Source of the DNA: a virus
Lineage: Duplodnaviria > Heunggongvirae > Uroviricota > Caudoviricetes
Length of the DNA: 24,259 nt
Virus record (IMG/VR): IMGVR_UViG_2671180603_000002
Strand: one strand, 5' to 3'
This document shows, one piece after another, positions 21,594 to 24,020 of this stretch. Position 1 is the first letter of the stretch, and each line of letters begins with the position of its first letter. The notes beneath the pieces were generated by a model. That model was not told where the DNA came from, did not search any database, and saw only the letters and a list, made by a program, of their open reading frames with translations. The position numbers and the translations under genes were made by a program.

Positions 21594-24020
21594 ATGGGTA
21601 AAGGCAGCAGTAAGGGGCATACCCCGCGCGAAGCGAAGGACAACCTGAAATCCACGCAGTTGCTGAGTGTGATTGATGCCATCAGCGAAGGGCCGGTTGA
21701 CGGTCCGGTGGATGGATTAAAAAGCGTGCTGCTGAACGGTACGCCGGTCCTGGACAGCGAGGGGAAGACAAACTTTTCCGGTGTTACGGTGGTGTTCCGT
21801 GCAGGTGAGCAGGAGCAGACACCGCCGGAGGGTTTTGAATCCTCCGGCTCCGAGACGGTGCTGGGTACGGAAGTGAAATATGACACGCCGATCACCCGGA
21901 CCATCACGTCGGCAAACATCGACCGTCTGCGCCTGACCTTCGGTGTGCAGGCACTGGTGGAAACCACCTCAAAGGGTGACCGGAATCCGTCGGAAGTCCG
22001 CCTGCTGGTTCAGATACAGCGTAACGGTGGCTGGGTGACGGAAAAAGACATCACCATTAAGGGCAAAACCACTTCGCAGTATCTGGCCTCGGTGGTGGTG
22101 GGTAACCTGCCGCCGCGCCCGTTTAATATCCGGATGCGCAGAATGACGCCGGACAGCACCACAGACCAGCTGCAGAACAAAACGCTCTGGTCGTCATACA
22201 CCGAAATCATCGATGTGAAACAGTGCTACCCGAACACGGCGCTGGTCGGCGTGCAGGTGGATTCAGAGCAGTTCGGTAACCAGCAGGTGAGTCGCAATTA
22301 TCATCTTCGCGGGCGCATTCTGCAGGTGCCGTCGAACTATAACCCGCAGACGCGGCAATACAGCGGTATCTGGGACGGAACGCTTAAGCCAGCATACAGC
22401 AACAACATGGCCTGGTGTCTGTGGGACATGCTCACTCATCCGCGCTACGGCATGGGGAAACGTCTTGGTGCGGCAGATGTGGACAAATGGGCGCTGTATG
22501 TCATCGGCCAGTACTGCGACCAGTCAGTGACGGACGGATTTGGCGGCACGGAGCCGCGCATCACCTGTAACTCTTACCTGACCACACAGCGTAAGGCGTG
22601 GGATGTTCTCAGTGATTTCTGCTCGGCGATGCGCTGTATGCCGGTATGGAACGGACAGATGCTGACGTTCGTGCAGGACCGACCGTCGGATAAGGTGTGG
22701 ACCTATAACCGCAGTAATGTGGTGATGCCGGACGATGGCGCGCCGTTCCGCTACAGCTTCAGCGCCCTGAAGGACCGCCATAATGCCGTTGAGGTGAACT
22801 GGATTGACCCGGATAACGGCTGGGAGACGGCGACAGAGCTTGTGGAGGATACGCAGGCCATTGTCCGTTACGGTCGTAACGTCACGAAGATGGATGCCTT
22901 TGGCTGTACCAGCCGGGGGCAGGCACACCGAGCCGGGCTGTGGCTGATTAAAACGGAACTGCTGGAAACGCAGACCGTGGACTTCAGCGTGGGCGCAGAA
23001 GGGCTTCGCCATGTACCGGGTGATGTCATTGAAATCTGCGATGATGATTATGCCGGTATCAGCACCGGTGGTCGCGTACTGGCGGTGAACAGCCAGACCC
23101 GGACGCTGACGCTCGACCGTGAAATCACGCTGCCGTCCTCCGGTACCACGCTGATAAGCCTGGTTGACGGAAGTGGCAATCCGGTCAGCGTGGAGGTCCA
23201 GTCCGTCACCGACGGCGTGAAGGTGAAAGTGAGCCGGGTTCCTGACGGCGTTGCAGAATACAGCGTGTGGGGGCTGAAGCTGCCGACGCTGCGCCAGCGT
23301 CTGTTCCGCTGCGTGAGTATCCGTGAGAACGACGACGGCACGTATGCCATCACCGCCGTGCAGCATGTGCCGGAAAAAGAGGCCATCGTGGATAACGGGG
23401 CACACTTTGACGGTGACCGGCGCGGCACGGTGAATGGTGTCACGCCGCCAGCGGTGCAGCATCTGACCGCCGAAGTCACCGCAGACAGCGGGGAATATCA
23501 GGTGCTGGCGCGATGGGACACGCCGAAGGTGGTGAAGGGTGTGAGCTTCCTGCTTCGCCTGACCGTGGCAGCGGACGACGGCAGTGAGCGGCTGGTCAGC
23601 ACAGCCAGGACGACGGAAACCACATACCGCTTCAGGCAGCTGGCGCTGGGGAATTACAGTCTGACAGTCCGGGCGGTAAATGCCCGGGGGCAGCAGGGCG
23701 ATCCGGCGTCGGTATCGTTCCGGATTGCGGCACCGGCAGCGCCTGTCACTATTGAACTGATACCGGGGTATTTTCAGATAACGGCGGTCCCGAAACTGGC
23801 TGTATATGACCCGACGGTGCAGTTTGAGTTCTGGTTTTCGGAAAAGCGGATTGCGGATATCAGGCAGGTTGAAACCAGCGCCCGCTATCTTGGCACGGCG
23901 CTGTACTGGATAGCCGCCAGTATCAATATCAAACCGGGCCATGATTATTACTTTTATATCCGCAGTGTGAACACCGTTGGCAAATCGGCATGTGGAGGCC
24001 ATCGGTCGGGTGAGCGATGA
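21594..24020 (+). CDS. J: Tail tip / central tail fiber protein J (host specificity): 805 lambda-like codons, then a reading-frame break
   Basis: Matches lambda gpJ from [24 protein letters not shown] through ...[17 protein letters not shown]. The frame is then lost near 23991 and stops at 24018-24020. Confidence 0.9.

Follow-up and report, generated by a model that had tools for sequence, protein, structure and literature searches.

The loss of two nucleotides that breaks the reading frame of the tail gene J in this DNA is probably not a real feature of the genome from which the sequence came, and it would be an ordinary event under either reading, error or mutation. It is likely to have arisen as a false join or gap closure at the boundary of a repeat shared by two paralogs. 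This reading is favoured because the scaffold contains several misjoins, the break falls exactly on a paralog boundary and adjoins a private substitution, and the broken form is unique in the databases where the intact gene is common. The window, meaning the whole stretch of DNA that was analysed, is the entire 24,259-bp scaffold CXDK01000078.1 of the draft assembly GCA_001252175.1 of Shigella sonnei, and its proteins are filed under the same species (CSQ80692.1).

The break in the J reading frame

Gene calls and Pfam placed J immediately downstream of the L, K and I genes of a lambda-type tail module, collinear with the loci L127 and L113. As originally predicted, the J frame stops at 24018-24020 (TGA), closing an ORF of 808 codons that opens at 21594 (21594-24020, plus strand), and J homology goes on in the +1 frame from 23992 to the window end, where 89 codons (23992-24259, plus strand) stay free of stops until they run off the contig. 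Alignment to the closest relatives also bore out an apparent loss of two nucleotides near 23991 relative to lambda, and positioned it between bases 23991 and 23992 (within 23985-23995, plus strand), 3′ of J codon 799 and not after codon ~805 as had been proposed; nine out-of-frame codons follow before the stop. At the break the window reads GCA T and then GTG GAG, where its relatives read GCA TTT or TTC GTG GAG. In the alignment, GCA--TGTGGAG of the window stood against GCATTTGTGGAG in the type-2 (T2) J genes and GCATTCGTGGAG in the lambda and type-1 (T1) J genes, and in the wider context GGCAT followed by GTGGAG stood against GGCATTTGTGGAG in T2 and GGCATTCGTGGAG in T1. The short form across the loss is GCATGTGGAG, and the form longer by two nucleotides is GCATTTGTGGAG. 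When J genes of related prophages were compared, a check that the original prediction had asked for, the homologues were found to run in one frame and to be two bases longer than the window. As the break is a single sequence difference and not a statistical pattern, a chance test is inapplicable to the difference itself; the T1/T2 switch intervals, by our own arithmetic from the switch coordinates, cover ~10% of J positions.

As written, the J ORF encodes four N-terminal and middle domains of TipJ (FNIII-A_GpJ, Phage-tail_3, Ig_J and Ig_J_second), with Pfam E-values of 1e-31 to 1e-43 and all above the curated cut-offs, and the break cuts the second Ig-like domain short. In an intact relative, Pfam located the central fibre domain (PF09327) at residues 872-1000 and the receptor-binding domain (PF12421) at residues 1030-1159; in the window, a single continuous J ORF of ~1130-1165 codons with the tail-tip fibre and C-terminal receptor-binding domains was not found, the frame stopping at 808. 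The contig itself ends inside J, at codon 889, and since the window is the whole contig, no complete J could be present in it, with or without the frameshift. A programmed +1/-2 ribosomal frameshift, or another form of recoding by which full-length J would still be made, was rejected as neither conserved nor set in a shift context, and we give it scarcely any credence: it agrees with the J homology that continues stop-free in the +1 frame and with that only, whereas all homologues examined are single-frame with TTT or TTC at the codon, the shifted arrangement is a singleton, and GCA TGT GGA offers no slippery or stop-codon context. The known frameshift among lambda tail genes is that of G-T, and to our knowledge no recoding has been described for lambda J.

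Two tail-tip modules in series on one scaffold

Positions 1-15810 (segment A, plus strand) are evidently a faithful copy of one lambda-like prophage, T1, and cover its late region from Nu1 to K codon ~192 in the order Nu1-A-W-B-C-D-E-...-H-M-L-K. In complete genomes of S. sonnei this prophage (L137) was 99.95% identical, and against the sister isolate L146 one mismatch was found in the 14,166 nt of window 1644-15809. Relative to E. coli relatives, segment A carries a 19-nt deletion in the head gene C (5815-5832, plus strand), between CAGCCG.A direct repeats, which divides the gene into ORFs of 97 and 336 aa. The deletion is present in L146, and an intact 439-aa C is carried by L147 to L152; the 336-aa product turned up in at least 40 blocks, among them Logan assemblies from independent runs and NCBI assemblies by others. 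Because the same lesion appears in independent assemblies, the C deletion is real, and it is common to a S. sonnei sublineage. It is an example of a genuine inherited frameshift, recurring across independent assemblies as the J break does not.

The long J copy lies in segment D (19839-24259, plus strand), which comprises T2 ′L-K-I-J up to the contig end. Compared with T2a in complete S. sonnei genomes (L127/L129/L131), D proved collinear at 99.6% identity, and the 2-nt gap is the only indel between D and the T2 loci. In the complete genomes T2 is an IS-flanked remnant that retains M-L-K-I-J-lom, with an unbroken J ORF of 1159 codons, and has no head, tail-shaft or lysis genes. This intact 1159-aa J was found on no fewer than 999 contigs, and 93 others had a version of it with one residue changed; every one of these contigs bears the name Shigella or S. 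sonnei. With the two bases restored, the window J differed from T2a J at 4 of 889 residues. The general suggestion of a defective, cryptic prophage holds: T1 is defective through its C deletion and T2 through IS truncation, but these reasons differ from the J break.

The pieces between 15.8 kb and the contig end, delimited by aligning the window to itself and to reference loci, were then painted at the sites separating the S. sonnei paralogs, with L146 as the T1 and L127 as the T2 reference. The tail of segment A was T1 at all 167 sites as far as 15744, and only the last two bases at the junction (15810-15811) differed. Segment B (15812-18036, plus strand), which contains T2 ′L-K-I-J with J nt 1-239, was T2 throughout save for T1 bases at 16775 and 16781, and these are the only positions at which its stretch 16043-18036 departs from 19839-21832 of D (1994 nt). 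Segment C (18038-19848, plus strand), which contains ′K-I-J with the first 658 nt of J, was T1 to ~19298 and T2 from 19335, and its first 356 nt (18038-18393) were 100% identical to the last 356 nt of A (15455-15810). Segment D was T2 with three T1 patches. At the plus-strand junctions, A-B (15811) passes from K nt ~576 to L nt ~61 and B-C (18037) from J nt 239 to K nt ~221, each through a single untemplated A, and C-D (19839-19848) passes from J nt 658 to L nt ~291 through a 10-nt microhomology, CTGGTCGGCG. On the evidence of the painted sites, the final 8.4 kb is four overlapping pieces of the co-resident T1 and T2 tail-tip modules, interleaved A-B-C-D.

A search of 153 billion gene positions returned the junction-spanning ORFs from this contig only, and the A-B-C-D arrangement was not found among complete E. 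coli genomes. The sister isolate L146 has a normal succession of K, I and an intact T1 J, without the array. A real L-K-I-J′ cassette or duplication was rejected, since the copies come from two diverged paralogs and the pieces overlap exactly; it is further ruled out by junctions that are non-homologous, by the sister isolate and by the absence of the junction ORFs elsewhere. The remaining J-derived segments of the window are 5′ fragments, just as the original prediction had described them (17798-18036, 239 nt; 19191-19848, 658 nt). What had been concluded from them, that a break in the only long J copy leaves no intact J encoded, does not hold, because the contig ends inside J and an intact T2 J is carried by over 1,000 further S. 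sonnei contigs; the fragments come from two prophages whose overlapping pieces follow one another in a single scaffold. The argument from 5′ fragments mirrors the scaffold, not the genome.

Origin of the two-nucleotide loss

The differences between D and L127 fell into three clusters (22142, 22148 and 22196; 22811, 22864 and 22880; 23932, 23933, 23951, 23957, 23958 and 23960), and all of the clustered substitutions carry the base of the co-resident T1 J. They delimit three T1-type patches in T2 J on the plus strand, at 22142-22196 (three informative sites), at 22811-22880 (three informative sites; V424) and at 23932-23960 (six informative sites; K780 and I789). Around the third patch, 108 nt of the window (23883-23990) are identical to the co-resident T1 J, and T2 resumes 3′ of the deletion. 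The deletion is the right edge of this patch and falls on the informative site that comes next, the single base by which T2 TTT differs from T1 TTC; the protein 5′ of the break carries the T1 residues K780 and I789, and that 3′ of the break a T2 string. A private substitution, T at 24011 (plus strand; A807V in the J frame), lies 20 nt 3′ of the deletion and was absent from every other locus compared and from viral_contigs; besides it, D has one private difference in 4.4 kb. A left/right chimera test with database J genes gave no signal, L110 having matched both flanks well, and the chimera signal emerged only with the two S. sonnei paralogs as references.

That D represents a third S. sonnei J paralog, a natural T1/T2 mosaic pseudogene lying outside the complete-genome loci compared, appears very improbable. 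J genes are naturally mosaic, some in the databases match the left flank perfectly and carry TTC (L044), and Shigella and EIEC genomes contain several T2-like alleles; but outside the three patches D departed from the single T2a locus of S. sonnei at only 3 positions in 4.4 kb, a single locus encoding this I protein was found per returned S. sonnei chromosome (similar places being collapsed in the output), and the deleted 22-mer was in no collection searched. This 22-mer, which spans the deletion, gave no match in viral, species-representative genome and metagenome contigs, and its intact version gave at least 120 in the viral set alone. Of 153 billion gene positions, none outside this contig had the 808-aa J product, and the best matches in E. 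coli complete genomes had 97.9% identity and were two bases longer. Among 5.8 billion protein clusters the out-of-frame J tail had no representative, the search returning only unrelated noisy J fragments, and five constructed truncated J variants on T2 backgrounds were absent by exact look-up. Independent assemblies of related isolates were not found to share the J lesion.

Two further S. sonnei contigs or assemblies, with CS-series accessions like the window's (CSE66402.1 and CSF11884.1; P0074), carry a 359-aa ORF that runs from the GTG directly 3′ of the deletion site to the J end and has the normal A807. A call of this type arises either from a contig or N-gap start just upstream or from the same frameshift. 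Partial J proteins in other S. sonnei assemblies start at window-equivalent nt 23898 (P0077), 23931 (P0084) and 23976 (P0080), which indicates that other assemblers end contigs here too; as the cluster with these proteins holds only C-terminal fragments of ~350-470 residues, it is supportive of a hotspot and not proof of one.

A real deletion may instead have inactivated T2 J in this isolate, perhaps also across a small clade, either independently or as the imprecise end of a T1 conversion or template-switch tract; we consider this possible but improbable. It would be in keeping with the decay of S. sonnei prophages, as seen in the lineage-shared C deletion of T1 and the gene losses of the IS-flanked T2, with the otherwise collinear alignment of D to the T2 loci, and with the 359-aa ORF of the two other assemblies, which a shared frameshift would give. 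Supportively, T2 J carries T1-type conversion tracts in other isolates: P0026, present on three contigs including a 4.9-Mb chromosome, equals T1 at 8 of the 9 changed residues between 689 and 762 and has an intact ORF. Given such real T1-to-T2 conversion in S. sonnei, the patches could be biological and the deletion a by-product of imprecise conversion. That the three T1 patches and the 2-nt loss are all real, and that imprecise short-tract conversion or template switching between the co-resident J genes knocked out T2 J, seems to us somewhat more doubtful still. Against a real deletion stand its uniqueness in all collections searched, set beside over 1,000 S. sonnei contigs with the gene intact, the several demonstrable misjoins of the scaffold that hosts it, its coincidence with a repeat boundary at which independent assemblers break contigs, and the private substitution 20 nt away, which P0074 lacks. 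As the 268 nt 3′ of the break show no further decay, any real event would have been very recent.

An assembly error is therefore the reading that we prefer, on the grounds given at the outset. The original prediction had weighed a pseudogenised J against a base-calling error; the error branch is the one favoured here, with an assembly join or gap closure in place of base calling as the cause. The mechanism that we propose starts from the two paralogous lambda-type tail-tip modules of the S. sonnei genome, T1 within a near-complete prophage and T2 within an IS-truncated remnant, whose identical stretches short reads are unable to separate. The scaffold has overlapping T1 and T2 pieces in series, the gaps between the pieces having been closed, and the two bases are missing where the 108-nt T1-identical stretch ends, a repeat boundary at which contig ends need joining. 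A scaffolder and gap filler of the Velvet/SSPACE/GapFiller type presumably made the join, the use of such a pipeline here being equally presumptive, and it may be at the joining step that both bases, and the private substitution close by, were lost or miscalled.

Several observations on this scaffold and its batch are consistent with such a course. The anomaly sits at a paralog boundary where contigs end (a T1-to-T2 switch, with starts at 23898-23992), and further misjoins are seen in the three junctions, in the 356-nt and 1994-nt overlaps and in CXDG01000094.1 (L140), which belongs to a sister assembly close to it in accession number. There, a 262-N gap has flanks that overlap by exactly 56 nt, and it is a false gap between overlapping contigs; the window is without any N, which indicates that its own gaps were closed. 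The Sanger pipeline described by Page et al. (2016; PMC5320598) runs Velvet and SSPACE and then GapFiller for 120 rounds; the authors note that these greedy algorithms "can lead to false joins", and 299 S. sonnei assemblies were built in this way (PMC5320598). The accession of the window's assembly was not found in the supplements of PMC5320598. Counted against an artefact were the five patch boundaries in J other than the deletion site, all of them indel-free, and P0074, which would also be expected from the same real deletion in related isolates.

Implications and comparison with known systems

The analysis is a caution that, where Shigella and E. coli are multi-lysogenic, scaffolds from short reads can give rise to tandem "gene fragment arrays" and to frameshifted prophage tail genes, and that such artefacts enter the databases as truncated "host specificity proteins", here CSQ80692.1 and the J′-L fusion CSQ80681.1. 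Were the deletion real, J would be left without the central fibre domain and the receptor-binding domain at its C-terminus; as the IS-truncated T2 remnant already cannot make particles, this loss would be neutral decay, and it has no bearing on host range or on any open question. If imprecise conversion were the source, the window would show directly how exchange between prophages can mutate and pseudogenise genes.

The window J resembles lambda J (TipJ, or host specificity protein J, family) in the gene order M-L-K-I-J and in having the same N-terminal and middle domains, with ~93% DNA identity to J genes of lambda-group phages over 2.7 kb; unlike lambda J, its ORF stops at 808 and PF09327 and PF12421 would be lost, both of which also lie beyond the contig end. 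To the S. sonnei T2a J ("MULTISPECIES: host specificity protein J [Shigella]", 1159 aa) the likeness is closer, at 99.6% DNA identity over L-K-I-J, and the window differs from it in the 2-nt loss, the three patches of T1 bases and one private substitution. Lambdoid prophages that share a host are known to recombine and to undergo gene conversion in multi-lysogenic E. coli, for example O157, and the T1-type tract in T2 J of other S. sonnei (P0026) is of this kind; there the ORF is intact, whereas the putative tract of the window ends in a frameshift and is known from one draft record only. Although the use of the pipeline is presumed for this record, the window is also like the false joins of Velvet, SSPACE and GapFiller assemblies (PMC5320598) in its serial arrangement of paralog pieces, its junction overlaps of 0-10 nt and its anomaly at a repeat boundary.

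Composition of the L-K-I-J' region

The stretch at 15811-19848 looks like a tandem array of L-K-I-J' fragments. Its makeup is that of two paralogous prophage modules, belonging to a lambda-like prophage (T1) and an IS-truncated remnant (T2), cut into four overlapping pieces in the interleaved order A (T1), B (T2), C (T1 then T2) and D (T2). One untemplated A was found at each of the junctions at 15811 and 18037, and a 10-nt microhomology at that of 19839-19848. Through this array, the databases gained proteins that are probably not real, one example being CSQ80681.1, a 351-aa J'-L fusion.

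The T1 K gene holds two T2-type bases at 18393-18404, which appear in both overlapping copies, at the end of piece A and in piece C, and the first of them is the exact end of piece A (15810). Here, too, a paralog switch and the end of a piece fall at one point. B and D share a G (16529 and 20325, respectively) where each of the two references, T1 and T2, has another base (A in T2), and this shared G may be a true SNP in the T2 locus of the isolate. The only private differences of D are the G at 20325, the 2-nt deletion in J and position 24011.

Sister assemblies

In the sister-assembly contig CXDG01000094.1, a 262-N run at 4617-4878 lies within the portal gene and interrupts its gene call. The same 56 nt stand on either side, so this run is a false scaffold gap between overlapping contigs, with an overlap that looks like k-1. 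A second sister contig, CXDS01000053.1, contains 119 N and matches the window nearly perfectly until about 14000; from there to 14854 (window-equivalent 14000-14842), spanning M and L, 176 differences and many small indels were found, as if, where H ends, the contig changed to a different paralog.

The T2 locus and exchange between J genes

The remnant that contains the T2 module in three S. sonnei complete genomes (locus positions 1-20543) is rich in IS elements, with IS1 and IS3-family copies at either side of the module, and has the order Q-like antiterminator gene, IS copies, short ORF, M-L-K-I-J-lom and truncated side-tail-fibre gene. Despite these IS-ridden surroundings, T2 J is intact (1159 aa) on >1,000 contigs. 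A T2 J protein of other S. sonnei isolates, found on three contigs, one of them a 4.9-Mb chromosome, carries a T1-type tract at residues 689-762 (window-equivalent about 23658-23880), in which 8 of the 9 changed positions hold the T1 J residue. This tract is evidence that the J genes of the two resident prophages do undergo gene conversion in S. sonnei.

A deletion in the T1 head gene C

Gene C of T1 (head protease/scaffold, about 5538-6839) carries a 19-nt deletion at 5815-5832, flanked by CAGCCG.A direct repeats, which frameshifts the gene into two ORFs of 97 aa and 336 aa and renders the T1 prophage defective. The deletion is common to many independent S. sonnei assemblies (at least 40 blocks, including the Logan runs ERR5979253 and SRR19126783) and does not occur in other S. 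sonnei genomes; being present in some assemblies and missing from others, it is a sublineage marker. The J lesion, by contrast, is not shared in this way.
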